From Escherichia phage mellemsur: a stretch of 40,770 nt of DNA. The notes beneath the pieces are model-generated. The model was not told the DNA's origin. It saw nothing but the letters and a program-made list of their open reading frames with translations, and ran no database searches. Shown here piece by piece: positions 2,910 through 39,974 of this stretch. The stretch is taken from the sequence record MN850570.1; one strand, 5' to 3'. A program made the position numbers and the translations under genes. How positions within the stretch are numbered: position 1 is the stretch's first letter; each line of letters starts with the position of its first letter.

Positions 2910-3341
2910 AGTTATTTCTCCAGTTGTTGGCTATTTTCAGGTGGATAGTGAACCCATTGTGACGCGCCGTACAGTCTGCACTCGTTGGCATTGATTGGCT
3001 TGTCGGATTCACTACCCTGAAAAATCGCCCCGCCCATTTCGCGCCGTGGATATTGTCTGCATCCACTCTCAGGAGTCCTCCAGCAGTCCGGCTCACCGTT
3101 TCCAGCTTGCCTACCTACCCGCTTCACTCCGCGCCTTATAAGACGTTCGGGATTGTGCTGATACTGCGCTGCGTCTATCGCGCTTCTCCGTTCCCATCGC
3201 ACCGGGCGCTACCCCTATTGCCTTTCGGCGGTGCCCTCACCAGTTCCTAGCTGCGCCGGATACCCATGAGGCCGAGACACTACGTGGCCTGTTTACGTTC
3301 ACTCAGAGCAGGTTGTTTTGCAACCTTTCAACTCGGTGCTG

Positions 3342-3370
3342 ATTACATCACATCGTATTCAGCGTGTCAA
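3342..3370 (-). promoter_or_regulatory. sigma70-like early promoter (TTGACA-N17-TGTAAT on minus strand)
   Basis: plus-strand attaca at 3342-3347 and tgtcaa at 3365-3370 with 17-nt spacer. Confidence 0.45.
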
Positions 3371-3421
3371 CTACTTTTTACTTCTGACTGACTGGCTTGC
3401 TGCCCTGTCAATCTGGAGCGT

Positions 3422-3450
3422 ATTACAGCATACTCGTTTCATCCTGTCAA
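3422..3450 (-). promoter_or_regulatory. sigma70-like early promoter (TTGACA-N17-TGTAAT on minus strand)
   Basis: plus-strand attaca 3422-3427 and tgtcaa 3445-3450, 17-nt spacer. Confidence 0.45.
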
Positions 3451-3558
3451 CCGTTTTATTCAGCGCCCGTTCTGAGATGAATAATCCGTACCAGTTTGCC
3501 TGCGTGTGTTTTAACGTCTTTATCAATGACTGTTTGGCTTGCTGGCTGACGTGGAAGC

Positions 3559-3587
3559 ATTACAGCATAGTGAGCTTGCCTTGTCAA
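3559..3587 (-). promoter_or_regulatory. sigma70-like early promoter (TTGACA-N17-TGTAAT on minus strand)
   Basis: plus-strand attaca 3559-3564 and tgtcaa 3582-3587, 17-nt spacer. Confidence 0.45.
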
Positions 3588-3661
3588 TACACTCCAGATT
3601 GTTAAAGAGCAGTGCTACCGTTCAATCTTGTCTACTGGGCTAGTGCCTTTCGACGTGATGA

Positions 3662-3691
3662 ATTACAGCACATAACCAAAACAGTTTGCAA
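3662..3691 (-). promoter_or_regulatory. sigma70-like early promoter (TTGCAA-N18-TGTAAT on minus strand)
   Basis: plus-strand attaca 3662-3667 and ttgcaa 3686-3691, 18-nt spacer. Confidence 0.4.
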
Positions 3692-3712
3692 GTATTATTT
3701 TCAAGAAAAGTG

Positions 3713-3731
3713 ATAAGTTACTGTAATCATT
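3713..3731. repeat. direct repeat copy 1 (ataagttactgtaatcatt) in AT-rich spacer
   Basis: 19/19 identity with 3792-3810; flanks also similar (gagatta / agataatta). Confidence 0.6.
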
Positions 3732-3791
3732 GAGATTAAAGTTTGATTGGATAATCACAACACTGGATAGAATACCGTTATCAGATAGGTC

Positions 3792-3810
3792 ATAAGTTAC
3801 TGTAATCATT
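3792..3810. repeat. direct repeat copy 2 (ataagttactgtaatcatt)
   Basis: identical to 3713-3731, about 79 bp apart. Confidence 0.6.
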
Positions 3811-3818
3811 AGATAATT

Positions 3819-3850
3819 ATGAAAGTGTCTATAGTGATATAGTATCGCTA
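3819..3850 (-). promoter_or_regulatory. conserved element copy B (minus strand reads tagcgatactatatcactatagacactttcat)
   Basis: 21-nt core tatcactatagacactttcat identical to 25712-25732 (there on plus strand); contains CACTATAGA, the core shared with T7/SP6-type promoters. Confidence 0.4.
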
Positions 3851-4320
3851 GATACGCAGAGCGAGCGCGGCGCAGCCGAAACAAGCGAGCGCCGAACGGA
3901 TGACGGATGGCAGACCGTAGGACTGACAGACGGCAGACAGTGAAGGCAGTAGGACAGTAACAGCAGGTAGCAGAGCATGACGCGCAGAGCTGGCAGGCGC
4001 AGACAGTAGACCGGCACACCACACAGCAGGACGGCAGCACCACGCCGCACACCGCTACACACCAGCACCACACAGCACCACGAAAAGAGACAGATACCCG
4101 CACGACCGAGCGCAGCACGCAGCACCGCACAGCCAGCGCAGAGCGTCCCCATAGGACAGCACCGCACAGCACAGCCAGCAGGACAGCGCACAGCACGTCA
4201 CACGGCAGACGATGAAACGCGACACGCACGAGCTATACCGCACGCAGGCAATCCTCTTGACGCGCCGCGCAGCGCACGCGAGCAAATATCGCGCACGTCG
4301 CGAGGCTAATCCGCGCACAC
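3851..4320. repeat. T-depleted (plus strand) degenerate short-repeat tract, presumed genome terminus / terminal-repeat region
   Basis: Manual count roughly 29 T in about 470 nt; recurring CAGCAC/CACAGCA/GACAGC units; lies between last late gene and early promoters. Confidence 0.65.
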
Positions 4321-4384
4321 GTCATGGGGGTACGCGCGGTCATTTGGGTCGAGGGAGGGCCAAGCATAAACGTGCAATTTTCAA

Positions 4385-4406
4385 GCCGGGGTATTGCACC
4401 CACGGC
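4385..4406 (-). terminator. possible hairpin downstream of endolysin gene
   Basis: imperfect GC stem gccgggg...ccacggc; A/U-rich but not U-run tail; weak. Confidence 0.2.
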
Positions 4407-4435
4407 CTGTTCATTGCCTCAGCTTTTGGATACCC

Positions 4436-5355: not shown

Positions 5356-5812
5356 CTTTCACTTTCCTTTTCCACGGAGATGGTACAAACCACATGACTA
5401 AACCAAGGATACACGTAAGGCCCATGCCGAAAGCCCATAGGAGGCTGCGTGGGTCGCTCTGAGAGACGATAACTGTGCGAGCCTGTACGTTTCCTTGGGT
5501 CATTTGCGACCCCTGCTTAGAAGCGTTTACAGAGCCTCCTGAGACGTCCTTGATGGATGTGCCATTCGAACCCTGCTTAGCGGTATCCACTTTCGCGTTG
5601 CCAGATACGTCACCGACTTCGGTTTCATCGGACTGTTTCGCAGTCACACCGATACCTTGCTTCGTATTTTCTGCACCTACCTGAGCCGTCAGTTCCGGCT
5701 TGTTGGGAGATACAGCCGAAGTTACAGCAGACAGTGCGCTAGTTGCGGAGCAGCCCGTCAGAGTCAGCGACGCTGATAGGACTGCCCCGGCCATTAGCCG
5801 AGACAGTTTCAT
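5324..5812 (-). CDS. outer-membrane lipoprotein with C-terminal transmembrane anchor, candidate unimolecular spanin
   Basis: Signal peptide with lipobox LTGC; Ser/Thr/Lys-rich region with KQG repeats; C-terminal TMD LLWAFGMGLTCILGLVMWFV and basic tail; adjacent to holin-like gene and endolysin. Confidence 0.5.
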   Translation of the reverse strand: MKLSRLMAGAVLSASLTLTGCSATSALSAVTSAVSPNKPELTAQVGAENTKQGIGVTAKQSDETEVGDVSGNAKVDTAKQGSNGTSIKDVSGGSVNASKQGSQMTQGNVQARTVIVSQSDPRSLLWAFGMGLTCILGLVMWFVPSPWKRKVKDDGSKEGAIS

Positions 5813-11158: not shown

Positions 11159-14100
11159 TATTCACCCTTAACTGCTTCGTTGAGTGCTCGGACACCCGGC
11201 ACAATGGAGATTAGTGGGAGAGCCTGAATGATGTTCCCGGCTGCCTTGCGAGCGTTATGCCCGGCTTGGTCGATATCGCCAGTGGCCAGACTACCTGCTG
11301 TAGCAGAGGTGGCACCAGCAACACCGTACAGACGGTCGAGGAACAACAGACCCGGCGCACCAAAGCTGCGCTGCTGCCCGGTCAGAACTCCAGTGAACTC
11401 AGAGGCAAAGCCGATAGCGCCGAGATAGTTCAGTGCCTGACCAGCCAGTTTGTTCGGAGCCATGGTATCCGGGTCAGAGAATGCCTTACCGGAAATCACG
11501 TTATTGGCAGCAGTGGCCATCATCGCCAGCGGATACTGGTACGCCATCAGCGTTGCCAGCCCACGGGCACCCTCACGATTCCAAGTACCAACCAGAGTCT
11601 TGTTGTGCGTTGCCGCGACGAATCGACGGAACGTAAACAGGAACTTACCCAGCGTACTGAACTCAGCAAATGCAGGCAGCTCACCTACGCGAGCGCGAAC
11701 AATAGCGTCATCCATGGCATTCATCATGACAATGCGAGAGCGATTGAACACCCCTTCATCCCAAGCATCAGGCTTGGTGCCATGAGTACCAACCTGCTTG
11801 CGAATGTCAGCCAGCAGCGCGTCATTGGCACCGTAGGTTTTCATGGCTGCAATAGCCTTGGCATCACCTTCGGCTGCCTTACGCAGCGTCTGCATCACGA
11901 GCGCAGCATTGGTTCGAGTCTGGTGGAAGTGGATGTATTTCTGCATGTTGATGAACATCGTGGCATCGCGCAGGTGTTCCATACGCATGACCCACGGAGA
12001 CTTATCCGCAGAGAACATGTCGTCATAGTGCTGCATGATTGGGCGCATACGAATATCACTCGCTACAGCCGCAGTCAGCGCTTCCTCGGCATCCAGAGCC
12101 AATTGACGACCTTCCTTAGTAGACACCCTCATTTGCTTAAATAGTGCGCGTGCTTCGGGAATTGTACGCATCATGGCGCGAAACGTATTGACTGCCCCGA
12201 AACGTTGCATCATCGTGCCGTATTCTACCAACTGCCACAGGCCAGATGCAGCCAGACCAGTCGCCTGAGTCAGTGCCGAAAGCTGGCGCATGAACTCCGG
12301 CATTTCCTCACCAACAGGAGCACCTTGGTAGTAAGCCATGATGTTGTCGTATTGGTCGAGAGCCTTACGGCGTGCCGTGCTATCCGGGATGGATTTGGCC
12401 AGAGCCTCGCGAGCGGCGGCGCGTTCAGCATCAGTACCCAGTCCAGCCTCATGCAGAGCCAGTCGCCCGGTAATGCGGCGGTTATAGCTGTCCATCATAC
12501 TGGTGATGCTGTCGTCGAACAGGTCACGCACCTGCAAGTTAGGGCCGAGCTGGTGCATCATGTCGATGTTGATACGGCTCTTGAGCATCGACGGTCGGCC
12601 AGCGTCCGAGCCAGACTCACGAAGGAGTGCGGAAGCACGGGCCTTGGCAGCCTCGTCGAGACCTTTCGCGTTCTCAATGATTTCGAGCAATTCATCGCGA
12701 CCTTCCTTGTTGATAATCATACCGGAGTTGTCGATACCGTAACCCTTACGACGAGCACGCTCAACCATGGCATGGGCAATGACGTTGGCAGTCGGACGGT
12801 CAGTACCGATACCGCGCTGCACAGCGGTCGTCATCTGCTTCATGAATGGCTTCTTGCCGAGCAACTGCTCAGCCTGCTCAATCTTGGTCACGTTCATCCG
12901 GCGCGGGTAGTAGTACGGGTTCTTGTCTACGAAGCCCGGTTCCACCATGCCCTTCGCTTCCAGCTCGCGGCCCACGGCGCGGGAGTATTCCCCCAGTCGG
13001 TCGGCGGCAGCGGCCACGTTAGCGTTGGCACCACGGAACTCTTTGTCAATCATGCGCTTGTCCAGCTCGAAACGGACAGCAGCTTCGAACTCCTGCTGCG
13101 CCCGGCGATAGCCCACTGGGTCACGGAAGCGACGGATGTTAGTCCAGCCGTCAGTGTTCAGTGCATTACGCAGGGTGTCCTCGTACTGGTTCAGCAGCAC
13201 GCCAAACCGAGCCTGAGTCTCACGCTGGATTGATGCAGCGGAAGTCATGTTCGGGTTCAGTGGGTCATCCAGCAGTCGTCCGGCGAGCGCACTGGCTTCA
13301 TCGGAGTGCTGACTGAATGACTTGAACAGAGACCATTCAAGGAACGGACGCTTAGGGTTGGTCTGCTCACCGCGACGAGCGAGGTCGAGACCGCGCTGCG
13401 CAGTGGCCCGGATGGATTCCGGCACCTCGTCAACCACAGTAGCGCCACGACCACCAAAGCCCAAGGACATGGCCATTGGCGACATAGCATTGTTCGGGTC
13501 GAACTGCGGTGGGTTGTTCGGGTCAATGCCATTACGACGCTGCATCTCTGCTGCAAATTCCTCTGGCGACAGGTCGGCCAGCGAGCGCTGTACCGGAGCC
13601 GGGCGATAGAAGGCAGTGGTGGCCGCCCCGTGCAGGGCAGCCGCAAAGATGATTTCGTTCTGAGACACTGGGCGTGCTTCGTTACCCACCGCTGTCATAG
13701 TGGCAGCAGTTGAAGCTGCACCGACAGCGGCGGTTCCGAGGCGACCTAATTTCAGGGCAGTGCCTGCTCCCATCGAGAGCAGGTCAGTGGCGAGGTACAG
13801 CGGGTCAGCGAATTGCAGAACCGCGTTCATCACCGGGGCAGTGTGAGCCAACTGGGTACGCTCGCGCATCTCTTGGAGCTGCTGCGTACGCCAGTTGAAC
13901 TCGTCCATGGATTTGGATTTAAACAGGAAGGTTCTGTCGTCTTCACCTACCGGGAACTGCACGTTCTGCAAAGCCTCGTTGGGCTTGAAGTCCGGGTCAG
14001 CCTGAAAGGTAGGCTTGTTGAAGGCGGCATCAAAGAGCTGAGTGGTATCCCAGTTCTTCACAGAAGCGCTCAACGCCGTGGCCATCGGAGTCGCTTCCAG

Positions 14101-17699: not shown

Positions 17700-20144
17700 T
17701 TAGATTCTCCGAACTTTGTTGTAGAACTTGATGTAGTAGCCCAGCCCCTGAATGTTCAGGTCGCCAGCCGTGGACGAGTCCACAACCATGCTGCTGGATT
17801 CCACCTCAAGACCCATGCGAACTTTCAAGTGCGCACGCTTAGCCAGCGTCGCTGACTCCAGACCTAATTCCTGACTGGTGTACCGGATAGGGCTGCTGAT
17901 AATGTTCAGTGCCGAGTACGCACCCCGGTCGCTCGCTGTGATGTTGAACAGGCTCGTGTACCGCAACGTGAAGTTGTAGTGCATGATGACCATCTTGTTC
18001 ACATCCATGTACGAGCCATCCTGATTGAACACTCGCGGTGGCGTAGGGCTGAACACTGCTTTGAATCGCAGGCCCACATACAGTGAGGTGCTGCCATACG
18101 ATGGCTGGAGATAGACACGGCGGTTCGTGGTGTCGATGGACTTGATACCCACCTCAGCCCCGATGTAGTTGCCGGACGGCACTACGTTCGTCATGAAATC
18201 CCAGTTGCCCTCAGTCTGGTAGCGGTACTGGATGATATCCCACAGCGCCTTCTGCTCGCCTGTCGCGGCGAACTGAATGTACGAGCTGTCCGTGGCCGGG
18301 TTCGTCACAGTCATCAACTGGGCGTAGTCAATGGCCGGGAGGAATCGCGCCGGGTCAGTCGGGTCAGAGGAGTCTCGCATGGACAGCGTGAGCAAGTTCA
18401 TGTGGCCCTGCTGCTCAACCAGCACAACCAGAACCTCACGTACGAACCACGCAGCCTGCACGGTGCCGTAGATTTCCCAGCGGTGCCACGAGGACAGAAC
18501 CTTCTCGTCACCAGACCAGAGGTACTCGTTCACGTACAGCGTGGACTTCTCAGTCGTCGAGCCAAACACGACGATGTTGTTCGTGGTGCTGGCAGAGATG
18601 TACGAGTTGGCCCCTTCCAGATAGGTCGGCAGGTGGTCGGTCACATCCTGACTCACGTACTGCAAATCCGTGTAGCCGGACGGCAGCATCTCCTTGATGG
18701 AGAACGAGCTGTTCGAGCGCGGGTACGCATAATACAGGCTGCGGCCAGAGGTGGTCGGCGCTACGCCAGTGTCCATCTGGTACGTCGAGGTCAACACAGC
18801 GGTGGCGTTGTTCGGCGTGAGGATTTGGTTACGTCCGGGGATAACGGCTTGGTGTTCTTCACTGGCCAGAATCAGGTCAGAGTTGAACGGGATGCCGTAC
18901 CGGAACGATGCCCCGGCGAAGCTGGACGCAGTGAACTCAATACGGTCGTCGTCCAGTACCTGCGTCACAGTCGTACGGAAGAAGTTGTTGCGGTCTTCCT
19001 TGTTGCTGGAACCCATGGTGATGTACGGCCCGGAGAACACAATCAGGCGACCTTGGAAGGAGGCCAGTCCAGTAATGCCCACGCCATCAGCATCAGTGAA
19101 TGCTGGGATGGAGTTGGTCTTATCATCACCAGCCAGTCGGCCCGGCCACGTACCCTGCGTAAAGGTGTGCTGGTTCGTGGTTGAGGTCGTGCTAAAAATC
19201 AGCGGCATGGTGCTGGGGTTAATCCCGGTCGGGGAGCCGTAGGCACCCTTCTCCACCCAGCGTGAGTTCGCGTAATCCCACTGGAAATACTGAGCGAAGC
19301 TGTCGTCGCCCACGGTCATGATGAAGCCACCAGCCTGAGTCGGCAGACGTGCCGGGAGCTTGGTGGTTAAATCGACGCGGTGCGTGTTTGAGGCAATCGC
19401 ATAGCTGGAACCAGTGTTGGTTGATACGTTCAGGTCAGTGTACGCGGCAGTGGTCTGGAGGTACATGTATGCACCGTCCACCTGCACGACCTCAAGCCCG
19501 GTCGCGCCGCCGATGGCAGCGTCGAGCTGGGACTTCAACTGGCCGATGATGTACTCAGGAGTTGCCTGCGCAGATGCACCGGGCGCGTCTGAGTTCGGAG
19601 TCGTGTACGATGCAGACACAGCACCACCGCTGGTCTCAATACGGACGGTGTACTGCTTGCCGTAGCCGCCAGCCAGCACAAAGAAGTAACCCCGGCGACC
19701 CGGATTCATACGCGTCTCGTTCTCCAGAAGCACGGGCAGCTTGGAGCAGTTGGCAACATACATGGTGTTGCCCACGGTAGCGAATACAATGTCGTCGGGG
19801 TTGTTCGTGACGAGATAGCTGGACTGGCCCATGAACTGGACAGTCTCAGTCTCGACGATGGATGTGACGTAACCAGTCTTCGTGTTGACGATGAACGTGG
19901 TGATGCCCCATCCGAGGTTAGTGGTATAGAAGCGTAAGTGGCCGAAGTTACCAAGGCTCCAGACGTTCGCATTAGTGGAGTCCACAGTGCGGTGCAGTCG
20001 GGTGCCGGGGCGTTTACGCAGGCCACGAACAGTATCAGAGGTCATGTTGACCTGTTCCTCAACCTGCGATAGCTGTCGGTCGGTATAGACCTGCTGGCTC
20101 ACGCCGCCGAGGATGGATTTATAAGCGCCTTGGTATACTGGCAT
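17700..20144 (-). CDS. tail tubular protein B
   Basis: 814 aa (T7 gp12 size class); follows tail tubular A. Confidence 0.75.
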   Translation of the reverse strand: MPVYQGAYKSILGGVSQQVYTDRQLSQVEEQVNMTSDTVRGLRKRPGTRLHRTVDSTNANVWSLGNFGHLRFYTTNLGWGITTFIVNTKTGYVTSIVETETVQFMGQSSYLVTNNPDDIVFATVGNTMYVANCSKLPVLLENETRMNPGRRGYFFVLAGGYGKQYTVRIETSGGAVSASYTTPNSDAPGASAQATPEYIIGQLKSQLDAAIGGATGLEVVQVDGAYMYLQTTAAYTDLNVSTNTGSSYAIASNTHRVDLTTKLPARLPTQAGGFIMTVGDDSFAQYFQWDYANSRWVEKGAYGSPTGINPSTMPLIFSTTSTTNQHTFTQGTWPGRLAGDDKTNSIPAFTDADGVGITGLASFQGRLIVFSGPYITMGSSNKEDRNNFFRTTVTQVLDDDRIEFTASSFAGASFRYGIPFNSDLILASEEHQAVIPGRNQILTPNNATAVLTSTYQMDTGVAPTTSGRSLYYAYPRSNSSFSIKEMLPSGYTDLQYVSQDVTDHLPTYLEGANSYISASTTNNIVVFGSTTEKSTLYVNEYLWSGDEKVLSSWHRWEIYGTVQAAWFVREVLVVLVEQQGHMNLLTLSMRDSSDPTDPARFLPAIDYAQLMTVTNPATDSSYIQFAATGEQKALWDIIQYRYQTEGNWDFMTNVVPSGNYIGAEVGIKSIDTTNRRVYLQPSYGSTSLYVGLRFKAVFSPTPPRVFNQDGSYMDVNKMVIMHYNFTLRYTSLFNITASDRGAYSALNIISSPIRYTSQELGLESATLAKRAHLKVRMGLEVESSSMVVDSSTAGDLNIQGLGYYIKFYNKVRRI

Positions 20145-25044: not shown

Positions 25045-25463
25045 TACGGTTTCTCCAAATCAATGAAGCGGTACTCCTGAACGTAAGGCCGCACCATATG
25101 GGAGTAACCGCACCAACGCACACCCGCTGAACGGGCCACGTCTTTGAGTACACGGAGGATGGCACGCATCACTCCACGGTTTCTGTACTGGGGCCAGACG
25201 TATGAGGCCATAACGACCACCATCTCGCCCACATGAATATCGAATAATCTGCCGATGTGAGCGACAGCCATGAGGCTGCCGTCATCGTCAGTGATGTAAA
25301 CGTCAACGCAACCGGAGGCGGTGGCCTCATACATGCTGTCAACAATCACATCGGGAGATAGGTCTGACCATGGCCGCTCAGCTTGAATACCTTCGGCCAC
25401 AGCACGGCGAATGTCGAGTGGCATCGTCGTGTGTGATGTATTTCCCATAGTAGACACTTTCAT
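25044..25463 (-). CDS. hypothetical protein, possible GNAT-like acetyltransferase
   Basis: 139 aa; segment WPQYRNRGVMRAIL resembles GNAT motif A; weak. Confidence 0.35.
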   Translation of the reverse strand: MKVSTMGNTSHTTMPLDIRRAVAEGIQAERPWSDLSPDVIVDSMYEATASGCVDVYITDDDGSLMAVAHIGRLFDIHVGEMVVVMASYVWPQYRNRGVMRAILRVLKDVARSAGVRWCGYSHMVRPYVQEYRFIDLEKP

Positions 25464-25464
25464 T

Positions 25465-25650
25465 TCAAATCACTCTTTCTCTGATGAAATCCAGAACGTC
25501 TTGCTTACCAGCCTCTCTGTTAATCAGAGGTAGGTTAGTGTCGGGAGTGACTGTCTTACCTACCTGAGACCATGTACCGAAGTGCTTCTCCAGTAGAGCT
25601 AACTGTGCTTTAGTGAACTGAACTCTTTCAAGTGGAGATTCTTTACCCAT
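25465..25650 (-). CDS. hypothetical small protein (start at MGKESPLERV)
   Basis: AAGAGAGGA Shine-Dalgarno before internal ATG; first gene after RNAP. Confidence 0.45.
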   Translation of the reverse strand: MGKESPLERVQFTKAQLALLEKHFGTWSQVGKTVTPDTNLPLINREAGKQDVLDFIRERVI

Positions 25651-25699
25651 ACAATCCTCTCTTAGTGGCAGCAACCCCCGCCACTGACGGGGCTACCGG

Positions 25700-25732
25700 T
25701 AGCGTGATATCTATCACTATAGACACTTTCAT
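25700..25732 (+). promoter_or_regulatory. conserved element copy A (plus strand tagcgtgatatctatcactatagacactttcat)
   Basis: Near-identical to reverse complement of 3819-3850; core CACTATAGA as in T7/SP6 promoters; flanked by 12-bp palindrome gctaccggtagc (25692-25703) and GC hairpin (25676-25692). Confidence 0.4.
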
Positions 25733-25760
25733 TTAAGTCAATGATACATATCACTATTTA

Positions 25761-28193
25761 TCAGCAGAAAAACTTGCTTGATTGTTTCACAAGCTGGATA
25801 TCCAGATTGCCCCGTTCGGGTGCAACAGCATTGTATCGTACAGCAAGTTGTTGAATTGGGTCATGTTGCTCATACATCTGTACGAACTTTTCACGAATGA
25901 CCTTGTGGAGTAACCCGGCATGTGCAGCCGCCACCCCGAACGAATCGTGGATGGACACCATGTACACCCCGTTATTCCACATCTCCCACAACACCTTCAT
26001 CATGTGGCTAGCATCCATGGCGTGTACGAAATTCGGAGCAATCGCAGCGGCACACTTCCTGCCGTCCGGCTTGTCCAGATACTCGCGCAGCTTAATGCTG
26101 TGGATACCCATGAGGTTGATGTTGTTGAGCATCGTCTCCTTGCTGGCTTGATACAGGTTAACCACCCGCAACCCCGATGGTGCAATGATTTCCACGTACT
26201 CGCCGTTGGCTGCCGCCTCAACAGCGATAGCCTGCAACCATGCCATCAGCTCTGCCGCCTTCGGCACAACGCGAGGGATTGCATTCCACATAAACTCTGC
26301 GATGAACTGCGCACACTCCAGCAGGCTCTTGCCGTCCGGCAGCTTGACCCGGTTCTCTCGCAGGTACAGGCAGTAGTAGTCCACCATGCCGTGCCGGGTT
26401 GCCCCGTACACGTAGGTCATCACTGGCTTCTTAGCCATCGCCCGGACAATACCGATTGAAACAAGCCACGTACCCATCTGCGTCGGTGACTGCGCCTCAC
26501 TATCTTCAAGAGCCTGCATCGCCGCTGCTGCCGTCTTGAGATATATGTCTGCTTTTCTTCCCACGCTATTGATAAGATTGACAGCAGCACCGCCAACTTC
26601 ATCTCGTAGCATCGCACTGAGGTGCTGTAATCCTGAACAGGTAGCGTCCCATTGCGTAACCACTCGGCAGGGATAAGTCTCAGGACTTCCTGAGTCGATA
26701 GCGCGAATGAGTTCAACAGAGGCAGCCCACGCGCTGATAGGGCTATCGGCTTCTGACCAGAACGAATCAAATGCCTCTGGAAGACGGCACGCCTCACGTA
26801 GTCGGGGGAGTGTCTTGTCCGTCCACGCCGCCCGGTCGTCGAAGTCTGTTGCGTCGTAGCCGAAGCAATTCGCAACATGAACCTTGAGCCAGAACAGCCC
26901 CTCAGTTCCGAGAGCCACTGGTTCCGCAAGCTCAAGCAGCGCTCGCACTGCGTCGATAGACTGAGGGTTAAGGGTCGAAGAATAATAAATTCGGCCCCGC
27001 GTATCGGCGTAAGTCGGGAGATAAATCCTATCGTACTGTGCATACCTGTCTGCCTCTTTGACTGCACCATTCAACGCCAGCATCTGCGACGTGAACTTAC
27101 GCAACTCATTGTAATACAAGCGAGTCTTCACCTTGTACTCATGAGCTTCGGCACCCATCTGCTGCTGCATCTCTGGTGGGAACTTGCTGATGTACTGTGC
27201 AAAGCTCACACCAGCGGGGATGGTGAACGGAAGTGTAGGCTCACGGGGTGGCACAGGCAGCCCCATAACGCCTGTACGGTTCGTTCGCAGGAACTCCAGT
27301 ACCATTGGGTTAACTCGGTACGGAACGCTGCTGAGCATCATACACGGCTCTATAACGGGGGTCGGGTCAACGTTCAATGCACGATACCCTTTGTGGTTCA
27401 TGCGGCTCATGACCCGGTACATCGCCGCCTGCCCATCGGAATGCCACATACCGCTGCGACCGTTCGGGGCAATCTGCTTCGGTGGGATAATCAGCGGTGG
27501 GCAGCACATGCCATCAGCACGCGGCATGTCCAGCCAGTCGTTCATCGTAGCCAGCACATCTTCGTGCAGTGCGAAGTGTGCCGTACCGCGCTGGCGCTGG
27601 TTGCCGCCGGCGCGAATCGTGGACACCAGACCAGTTGGCTCGACGCACTTCATCATCAGCTTGCCAATGGTAATCAGCGCACGCTGCGGCAGCACATCAA
27701 TCTCTACCCCAACGTTCGCCGCCGACGCACGCGCTTTGTTGTAGACGTGGTTCGCTGACTTCGAGCGAGACTTCTTCACGTCCTGCTTAACGCGCTCCAT
27801 GTACGCCGCCTGCTGTGGCCCGGTCTGCTTCGCCCGGAGGTACACTACCTCAGCCATCAGTGCCTTGCCCATGCTCTTGAGCAGACTCAGTACCGCCTGC
27901 TCCGACGCAGCACCGGACACCGCCATGCTCAGTGCGAGAGAGGCACACGCTTTGGTGCCAATCTCACGCATGTACGTCCGGTACTGCGCACCATACCCAC
28001 GGGTCGTTTCGCTCAAGGTTTCTTGCATCGCAGCTTCGACCAGAGGATAAGCCTCAACCATCATACGCTGGAGCAACGGCACCGACCCGGCGCGGCCACT
28101 GGCCATCGCCTCTTTGATATTATCCAGCCAGCCCTCGCGGTGTCTGGCTCGCGCTTCTTCTTCAAGTCGAATCTGCTCTGCAAGTAAATCCAC
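25761..28193 (-). CDS. single-subunit DNA-dependent RNA polymerase (T7/phiKMV-type)
   Basis: 810 aa; DATCSGLQHLSAML (T7 RNAP motif A region) and SIHDSFG (motif C region). Confidence 0.9.
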   Translation of the reverse strand: MDLLAEQIRLEEEARARHREGWLDNIKEAMASGRAGSVPLLQRMMVEAYPLVEAAMQETLSETTRGYGAQYRTYMREIGTKACASLALSMAVSGAASEQAVLSLLKSMGKALMAEVVYLRAKQTGPQQAAYMERVKQDVKKSRSKSANHVYNKARASAANVGVEIDVLPQRALITIGKLMMKCVEPTGLVSTIRAGGNQRQRGTAHFALHEDVLATMNDWLDMPRADGMCCPPLIIPPKQIAPNGRSGMWHSDGQAAMYRVMSRMNHKGYRALNVDPTPVIEPCMMLSSVPYRVNPMVLEFLRTNRTGVMGLPVPPREPTLPFTIPAGVSFAQYISKFPPEMQQQMGAEAHEYKVKTRLYYNELRKFTSQMLALNGAVKEADRYAQYDRIYLPTYADTRGRIYYSSTLNPQSIDAVRALLELAEPVALGTEGLFWLKVHVANCFGYDATDFDDRAAWTDKTLPRLREACRLPEAFDSFWSEADSPISAWAASVELIRAIDSGSPETYPCRVVTQWDATCSGLQHLSAMLRDEVGGAAVNLINSVGRKADIYLKTAAAAMQALEDSEAQSPTQMGTWLVSIGIVRAMAKKPVMTYVYGATRHGMVDYYCLYLRENRVKLPDGKSLLECAQFIAEFMWNAIPRVVPKAAELMAWLQAIAVEAAANGEYVEIIAPSGLRVVNLYQASKETMLNNINLMGIHSIKLREYLDKPDGRKCAAAIAPNFVHAMDASHMMKVLWEMWNNGVYMVSIHDSFGVAAAHAGLLHKVIREKFVQMYEQHDPIQQLAVRYNAVAPERGNLDIQLVKQSSKFFC

Positions 28194-39902: not shown

Positions 39903-39923
39903 AGTTCACCTCACGTTGGCCAA

Positions 39924-39938
39924 TATAGACACCTTCAT
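39924..39938 (+). promoter_or_regulatory. partial third copy of conserved element (plus tatagacaccttcat), preceded by hairpin 39940-39964
   Basis: 14/15 match to core of elements A/B; located about 21 nt upstream (gene direction) of ATG at 39902; 7-bp stem atgcctg/caggcat. Confidence 0.3.
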
Positions 39939-39974
39939 AATGCCTGCTAAATAATAACAGGCATGAGTAGATGA

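Follow-up and report, generated by a model that had tools for sequence, protein, structure and literature searches.

Directly downstream of its RNA polymerase gene, the genome of Escherichia phage mellemsur carries an element (element A, plus strand, 25700-25732, tagcgtgatatctatcactatagacactttcat) part of which is repeated elsewhere in the genome. Which protein reads this element, and in which direction? An earlier note on this DNA had proposed a promoter with a T7/SP6/K11-type core, served by the single-subunit RNA polymerase (RNAP) that the phage itself encodes, and had found its polarity puzzling. Our analysis indicates that the element is very probably the cognate promoter of the phage's single-subunit RNAP, read with the polarity ATGAAAG->, opposite to the T7-like reading.

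The window, that is, the whole stretch of 40,770 nt that was analyzed, is an entire Bonnellvirus genome in reverse orientation and circularly permuted, and all of its long open reading frames lie on the minus strand, referred to here as the coding strand. Over 3.6 kb around element A it is 99% identical to Escherichia phage megetsur (Bonnellvirus, Autographiviridae), and 21 phage records match this 3.6-kb region. The RNAP gene is the last of the DNA-metabolism genes and is directly followed by the structural genes, a gene order of the phiKMV/KP34 type. A non-coding stretch of 1.5 kb (2910-4435), located between the endolysin gene and the first early gene, holds the genome ends.

25761..28193, minus strand: gene for a single-subunit RNAP of 810 aa, matching T7 RNAP in the PDB (E = 1e-57) and annotated as RNA polymerase in megetsur.

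Within element A, the 21-mer TATCACTATAGACACTTTCAT is found exactly at 25712-25732 (plus strand) and at 3819-3839 (minus strand). The genome-wide search with mismatches that the earlier note had proposed returned exactly these two sites at up to 3 mismatches, against 0.00 expected from shuffles. The second site had been placed at 3819-3850; the reverse-complement copy is indeed there but ends at 3839, so that the former coordinate overshoots by 11 nt. The 14/15 partial copy at 39924-39938 (tatagacaccttcat) is present as described, and two further copies, at 25446-25463 and 12115-12132, had escaped notice. On the coding strand, the family reads ATGAARGTGTCTA(N4)G. Four exact copies of ATGAARGTGTCTA and one with a single mismatch, five core copies in all, compare with 0.04 expected, a number far above chance. 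Four copies are sense to the genes and one, near the left end, is inverted:

25715..25732, minus strand: copy A, ATGAAAGTGTCTATAGT followed by G, 29 nt after the RNAP stop codon, preceding a small gene at 25651 and the structural module.
25446..25463 (core 25451-25463), minus strand: copy B, ATGAAAGTGTCTACTAT followed by G, 298 nt after the RNAP stop codon and 269 nt downstream of copy A.
39921..39938, minus strand: copy C, ATGAAGGTGTCTATATT followed by G, in the gap that precedes the run of genes leading to primase, helicase and DNA polymerase (gene context from the megetsur annotation).
12115..12132 (core 12120-12132), minus strand: copy E, ATGAGGGTGTCTACTAA followed by G, in frame within the gene for a 1034-aa internal virion protein (..KQMRVSTKE..).
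3819..3836, plus strand: copy D, ATGAAAGTGTCTATAGT followed by G, the sole copy opposed to all genes, facing the predicted left end at 4352.

The ATG of copy B is the start codon of a 139-aa gene (MKVST...), the next but one after the RNAP gene, and copy E is located upstream of the tailspike, terminase and lysis genes. Directly upstream of copy C there is a conserved hairpin (39940-39964; coding strand ATGCCTG..CAGGCAT) that carries a compensatory base-pair change in Kosakonia phage Kc261 (ATGCCAG..CTGGCAT) and is replaced by a different stem in phage J8-65; it is probably a terminator or processing site that closes the early unit. A further match at a gene start, at 5812 (ATGAAACTGTCTC), has no counterpart in Kc261 and was dropped.

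Comparison with related phages revealed that the copies change in concert. All five are kept in megetsur and aldrigsur, and a genome-specific version of the motif is present at the position of copy A in all 16 relatives. The genome of Kc261, ~87% identical to the window, contains none of the window's copies as such but has ATGAAAGCTACTA at all five homologous sites. Each of these sites, that of the inverted copy among them, thus has CTA in place of TGT at motif positions 8-10 (numbered with the A of ATG as 1); the version at copy C is ATGAAAGCTACTATATTG. In J8-65, TAATGAAAGTAACTG is found at C (position 5664), A, B and the inverted D, and LIMEzero, which belongs to another genus, has AAGGCAAGCACTA at A, B and the inverted D. 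Two metagenomic relatives have motif versions of their own. Where the window has TGT, the triplet is thus CTA in Kc261, TGA in glasur and TAA in J8-65. Copies B and E lie in coding sequence (positions 20045 and 33168 in Kc261). At copy B, Kc261 and usur have ATGAAAGCTACTA, encoding MKATT, and RZ4, ROV85 and glasur have TGACTA; at copy E, Kc261 has ATGAGGGCTACTACTAAG (MRVST to MRATT), the same triplet switch, while the J8-65 counterpart is weaker. Because the switch alters the encoded protein at both places, what is constrained is the DNA word rather than the peptide, and a switch in promoter specificity would have forced Val-Ser to Ala-Thr in two unrelated proteins.

The T7 specificity loop contacts the promoter at approximately -11 to -7 and changes with promoter specificity. 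The T7 residues R746, N748, R756 and Q758 align to N691, N693, K701 and R703 of the window RNAP, which allows the corresponding segment to be located:

26097..26135, minus strand: part of the specificity loop, codons 687-699 (TMLNNINLMGIHS), aligned to T7 residues 742-754 and including the equivalents of R746 and N748.

The RNAPs of the window and Kc261 differ at 73 of 810 positions. Residues 687-699 account for 9 of these differences in 13 positions, plus an indel, and form the densest 13-residue segment of the alignment (Fisher p = 1.3e-7). In contrast, aldrigsur shares its motif with the window, and the 19 differences in its RNAP all lie outside the loop. Among 16 genomes, loop type goes with motif version, each of the four loop types found in more than one genome being associated with a single version:

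Loop TMLNNINLMGIHS: motif TGT-CTA, 5 genomes.
Loop IALNNINLMGIHG: motif TGA-CTA, 3 genomes.
Loop SPM-HLHLMGVHQ: motif CTA-CTA, 2 genomes (Kc261 and usur).
Loop TTM-GIKLMGVHA: motif TAA-CTG, 2 genomes (J8-65 and smaasur).

The mapping is not strictly one to one, as Lidtsur combines the TAA-CTG core of J8-65 with a somewhat different loop. This covariation provides strong evidence, at the level of sequence comparison, that the motif is the RNAP's own promoter, and the proposal of the earlier note that the element serves the encoded single-subunit RNAP is strongly supported by it. The loop (residues ~687-699) would read motif positions 8-10 and 13, and loop and promoters would have switched together several times within the genus. 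Over the whole genome, usur is nearer to glasur (90.8%) than to Kc261 (87.2%) (PMC8402661, Table 2). Its loop and promoter type, however, are those of Kc261 and not those of glasur. Such sharing despite the kinship with glasur suggests that the specificity module has been exchanged among phages, or has switched repeatedly.

Alternatively, the repeats might not be promoters at all but be bound by another DNA-binding protein of phage or host origin, such as a regulator or a factor for replication or packaging, or they might be products of gene conversion. Conversion can yield concerted evolution of dispersed repeats, and in principle the concerted change could come from conversion among the repeats instead of selection by the RNAP; in addition, copies A and D share 21 nt of identity and a GTGATA-N2-TATCAC palindrome that are missing from B, C and E. 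Such an explanation nevertheless fails to account for the tracking of the RNAP loop by the motif version in 16 genomes, for the location of two copies exactly at the mapped promoter positions of KP34 and LUZ19, and for the alteration of coding sequences that keeps the motif. It also provides no alternative late promoter, the sigma-70 scan of the post-RNAP spacer being empty. We regard it as improbable.

The GTGATA-N2-TATCAC palindromes bracket copy A, one upstream (25742-25754, minus strand) and one over the start (25704-25717, minus strand). A degenerate one follows copy D (3834-3848, plus strand), and the spacer bases vary among the relatives. It is owing to these palindromes that the identity of A and D extends over 21 nt instead of ~14. 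They could be binding sites of a regulator. Two other features reported for this locus, a 12-bp palindrome and a GC hairpin, were also recovered, both in the leader that would be transcribed downstream of copy A:

25692-25703, minus strand: palindrome GCTACCGGTAGC.
25676-25692, minus strand: hairpin CCCCGtcagtggCGGGG, CCCCG..CGGGG.

The stretch that comprises them (25676..25703) is conserved in Kc261. The predicted fold of the copy A leader (-19.5 kcal/mol, z = -0.45 against shuffles) is no better than that of shuffled sequence, a search of the whole window against Rfam yielded no structured RNA, and a scan for intrinsic terminators found none at the element. A scan of 25400-25900 for sigma-70 promoters (TTGACA/TATAAT, spacer of 16-18 nt), by a tool that accepts only -10 hexamers with an A in second place, detected no promoter; the nearest candidate, TTGACT-N14-TATAGT, has too short a spacer.

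If the motif is the promoter of the phage RNAP, its sequence on the coding strand would be read as 5'-(A/T)ATGAAAGTGTCTAnnn(T/A)-3', and transcription would start a few bases beyond CTA. Several observations argue for this polarity. With ATGAAAG->, the genes and four of the five copies share one orientation, and these copies lie at module boundaries. Both the block conserved within a genome and the bases covarying with the loop are then located upstream of the start, at approximately -10 to -5, the region in which the T7 specificity loop contacts its promoter. The mapped promoters of KP34 and LUZ19 likewise begin with (T/A)ATG upstream and have copies directly after the RNAP gene. Finally, the T7-like core CACTATAG is found in only two of the copies and in none of those of J8-65, Lidtsur and LIMEzero. 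Of the 25 copies examined, 23 have a G at motif position 18, the two exceptions being both copies of Lidtsur. The start site is therefore most likely this G, going by its conservation, which gives a promoter of 17 nt, the same length as in T7. The examples of KP34 and LUZ19 suggest that it could instead lie at 15-16, so we leave the range at 15-18.

Read the other way, as a promoter of the T7/SP6 class in T7 polarity (TATCACTATA followed by GACAC, with TATCACTATAG->), copy A and the copy at 39.9 kb would direct antisense transcription, and the terminal copy alone would be sense, in the manner of T7 phiOL. The latter is located upstream of the host-type early promoters of T7 and points rightward. 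There is some resemblance on this side: copies A and D contain CACTATAG, a hand alignment of copy A with the T7 promoter gives 13 matches in 18 positions, and copy D would, in this polarity, be situated upstream of host-type early promoters, pointing rightward like phiOL. Yet CACTATAG, which had been put forward as the core shared with T7, SP6 and K11, is confined to 2 of the 5 copies, being absent from B, C and E as well as from every homologous promoter copy of J8-65, Lidtsur and LIMEzero. Its occurrence is not significant by itself (2 copies against 0.6 expected, with 2 reached in 8 of 100 shuffles). In T7 polarity, moreover, the block that is conserved within the genome would lie at +1 to +13, i.e. 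be transcribed, with the loop-covarying triplet at +2 to +4, while A and D would be unlike in the recognition region, -17 to -8. Transcription from four of the five copies would run against every gene, and no phage promoter would be left to serve the late genes. We therefore consider T7 polarity very unlikely. The resemblance is explained by the fact that CTATAG, which is present in two copies only, is its own reverse complement.

That the shared ATGAAAGTGTCT is a translational feature, either a start-codon context or a leader peptide (MKVS...), is scarcely credible even though all copies begin with ATG, B is a real start codon and A, C and D open mini-ORFs of 29, 10 and 7 codons. Against this reading, no Shine-Dalgarno sequence precedes A or C, the ATG of copy E encodes an internal Met in frame, and copy D is not on the coding strand at all. 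The switch from VS to AT in the peptide also goes along with a change in the DNA-reading loop of the RNAP and, with a start near position 18, the ATG would be outside the promoter's own RNA.

Under the promoter reading with polarity ATGAAAG->, we propose the following transcription program. Host RNAP would transcribe the early genes from four TTGACA-N17-TGTAAT promoters. Once made, the phage RNAP would fire from copy C into the replication genes; copies A and B would drive the structural genes and copy E would reinforce transcription of the tailspike, terminase and lysis genes. The four tandem host-type early promoters were identified at ~3342-3691 (minus strand; TTGACA or TTGCAA, N17/18, TGTAAT), with -35 hexamers at 3691-3686, 3587-3582, 3450-3445 and 3370-3365, and are conserved in both Kc261 and J8-65. 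They escaped the scan tool because it requires an A at position two of the -10 hexamer.

There remains the inverted copy. An inverted copy with the genome's own version of the motif is present in eight genomes (the window, megetsur, aldrigsur, Kc261, J8-65, Lidtsur, UViG_2228664000 and LIMEzero). J8-65 has annotated terminal repeats that are identical, direct and 259 bp long, whose first base follows the junction CCTCCC/TCGACCC. The same junction is found in the window at 4346-4358 (minus strand), which places the predicted physical left end of the genome at 4352 on the coding strand:

4106..4352, minus strand: predicted direct terminal repeat, present as a single copy, its boundaries drawn by homology with J8-65.
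3840..4352, plus strand: tract that copy D would transcribe, with 8% T against 23% genome-wide.

Copy D is located ~270 nt to the inside of the predicted repeat and 517 nt from the left end, which it faces; in J8-65 the inverted copy is in an equivalent place, at 548, 290 nt to the inside of the 259-bp repeat. The low T content is also seen in J8-65 (8.9%) and LIMEzero (13%). The tract 3840-4352 contains five of the six longest T-free runs of the genome and is A-poor on the coding strand. An RNA made from it would thus be U-poor and free of U-rich stop signals. Copy D is probably a genuine leftward promoter, and the RNA that the phage RNAP would make from it would cover the U-poor tract as well as the terminal repeat. 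With unit-length DNA as the template, this RNA would end by run-off at the left end, after ~517 nt; with concatemers, it would extend across the junction, antisense to the lysis genes.

An inverted promoter in this place has a precedent in phage LUZ19, whose P001 has a mapped transcription start site (TSS), gives rise to antisense transcripts that reach the right end and is conserved in 15 other Phikmvvirus species (PMC10914365). Its authors suggested that P001 keeps transcription out of the early genes on circularized DNA (PMC10914365), which, in our gloss, is in effect concatemeric. Of the two ways of resolving the polarity puzzle that the earlier note had weighed, the second, in which the gene-proximal copies are sense and the terminal copy points backwards, thus appears to be right, but the backward copy is not an anomaly, being conserved across the clade and matched in LUZ19. 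By analogy with P001, the likeliest function of copy D would be to oppose late transcription across concatemer junctions into the early region, a role that we put forward tentatively. A role in junction processing or in replication is also possible.

The surroundings of copy D contain several other elements. The sequence AATGATTACAGTAACTTAT (the F2 repeat) occurs twice, exactly, at 3713-3731 and 3792-3810 (minus strand), the copies being 79 nt apart and back-to-back with D, within a block of 27% GC (3690-3840). It resembles the KP34 strong promoter TAATGTTACAG, is unchanged in Kc261 and differs in J8-65, Lidtsur and LIMEzero. Between its two copies there is an IHF-like sequence, AATCAAAnnTTTA, at 3736-3748. 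The F2 repeat was rejected as the main promoter of the RNAP: no copy is found near the late genes, it is the same in the window and Kc261 despite their differing loops, and it differs between J8-65 and Lidtsur although these share the main motif. Further toward the end, TATCTGTCTCTTTTCG (4081-4096, minus strand), ~12 nt from the inner boundary of the repeat, to its inside, is conserved throughout the relatives. Its likeness to the class II pause signal of T7 (ATCTGTT followed by a U-run) is inexact (ATCTGTC plus TCTTTT in the window, ATCTATC plus TTTTTT in J8-65). One copy of the T7 signal is found at the concatemer junction of that phage. With T7 RNAP, a change of any base in the class II signal is reported to abolish it (10.1101/2021.01.11.426313); the window encodes a different enzyme. 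Conceivably, copy D, the U-poor tract, TATCTGTCTCTTTTCG and the 27%-GC block with its two F2 repeats and IHF-like site form a left-end machine in which leftward transcription is needed for junction processing, packaging or the priming of left-end replication, although we think this unlikely. Were it true, the arrangement would be a mirror image of the rightward phiOR/CJ arrangement of T7.

These results provide a promoter map for Bonnellvirus and, by extension, for LIMEzero-type phages. Our literature search, which stopped short of Supplementary Dataset S1 of a 2025 NAR genome-mining paper (PMC11880802), turned up neither a published promoter map nor transcript data for Bonnellvirus. The genus offers a natural graded series of loop/promoter pairs, in which promoters differ by one to three bases (TGT, TGA, CTA, TAA) and the enzymes are otherwise 85-95% identical. 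Such pairs are material for dissecting or engineering the specificity of single-subunit RNAPs other than that of T7. A caution for motif spotting also emerges, as a palindromic CTATAG core gave a T7-like look on the wrong strand.

Compared with T7, SP6 and K11, the window shares a promoter of 17-18 nt and a homologous RNAP, although the similarity to T7 RNAP, while full-length, is distant (E = 1e-57). The coding strand of copy A aligns with the T7 promoter without gaps, with AAT at -16 to -14, CTATA at -5 to -1 and G at +1. In contrast, CACTATAG is limited to two copies, where it lies on the opposite strand. The window has 5 copies against ~17 in T7, with no class II/III organization.

The strong promoter of KP34, T(A/G)ATGTTACAGGAGTA, was determined by in vitro transcription and 5'-RACE (PMC6834552). 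In both phages, a phiKMV-type RNAP gene precedes the structural genes. The KP34 promoter has a 5' TAATG block and is present immediately behind the RNAP gene, again in the late region and once more close to the left end. Its left-end copy, however, is sense (477, plus strand), so that the clade varies in this respect; its core sequence is different, and no inverted copy was found in the first 1.2 kb of KP34. Two points of this comparison count against the promoter assignment made here. The similarity of the five-copy motif to T(A/G)ATGTTACAGGAGTA of KP34 and GgtTATGTCACacACAnnGG of LUZ19 is confined to the 5' (A/T)ATG block, and the F2 repeat (TAATGATTACAGTAAC) is more like the KP34 promoter than the five-copy motif is.

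A direct precedent is LUZ19, for which the phage promoters P001, P007, P008 and P009 were mapped by ONT-cappable-seq: a pair immediately behind the RNAP gene, a third within the structural region and, at the left end, the inverted P001 (PMC10914365). As in the window, the promoters are few and near-identical, ~20 nt long and arranged in a layout conserved within the genus, and the motif begins with TATG upstream. The LUZ19 promoter GgtTATGTCACacACAnnGG is otherwise unrelated, and host, genus and G+C content differ; the window has an additional copy, C, before the replication genes and is known from sequence comparison, whereas LUZ19 has been mapped. The layout with a pair of promoters behind the RNAP gene and an inverted promoter at the left end therefore reaches enterobacterial relatives whose promoter sequences are unrelated. 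That it is shared beyond Phikmvvirus argues that the antisense left-end promoter is functionally important and not a quirk of LUZ19. The Bonnellvirus promoters are a further case of a layout already mapped experimentally in phiKMV-type phages.
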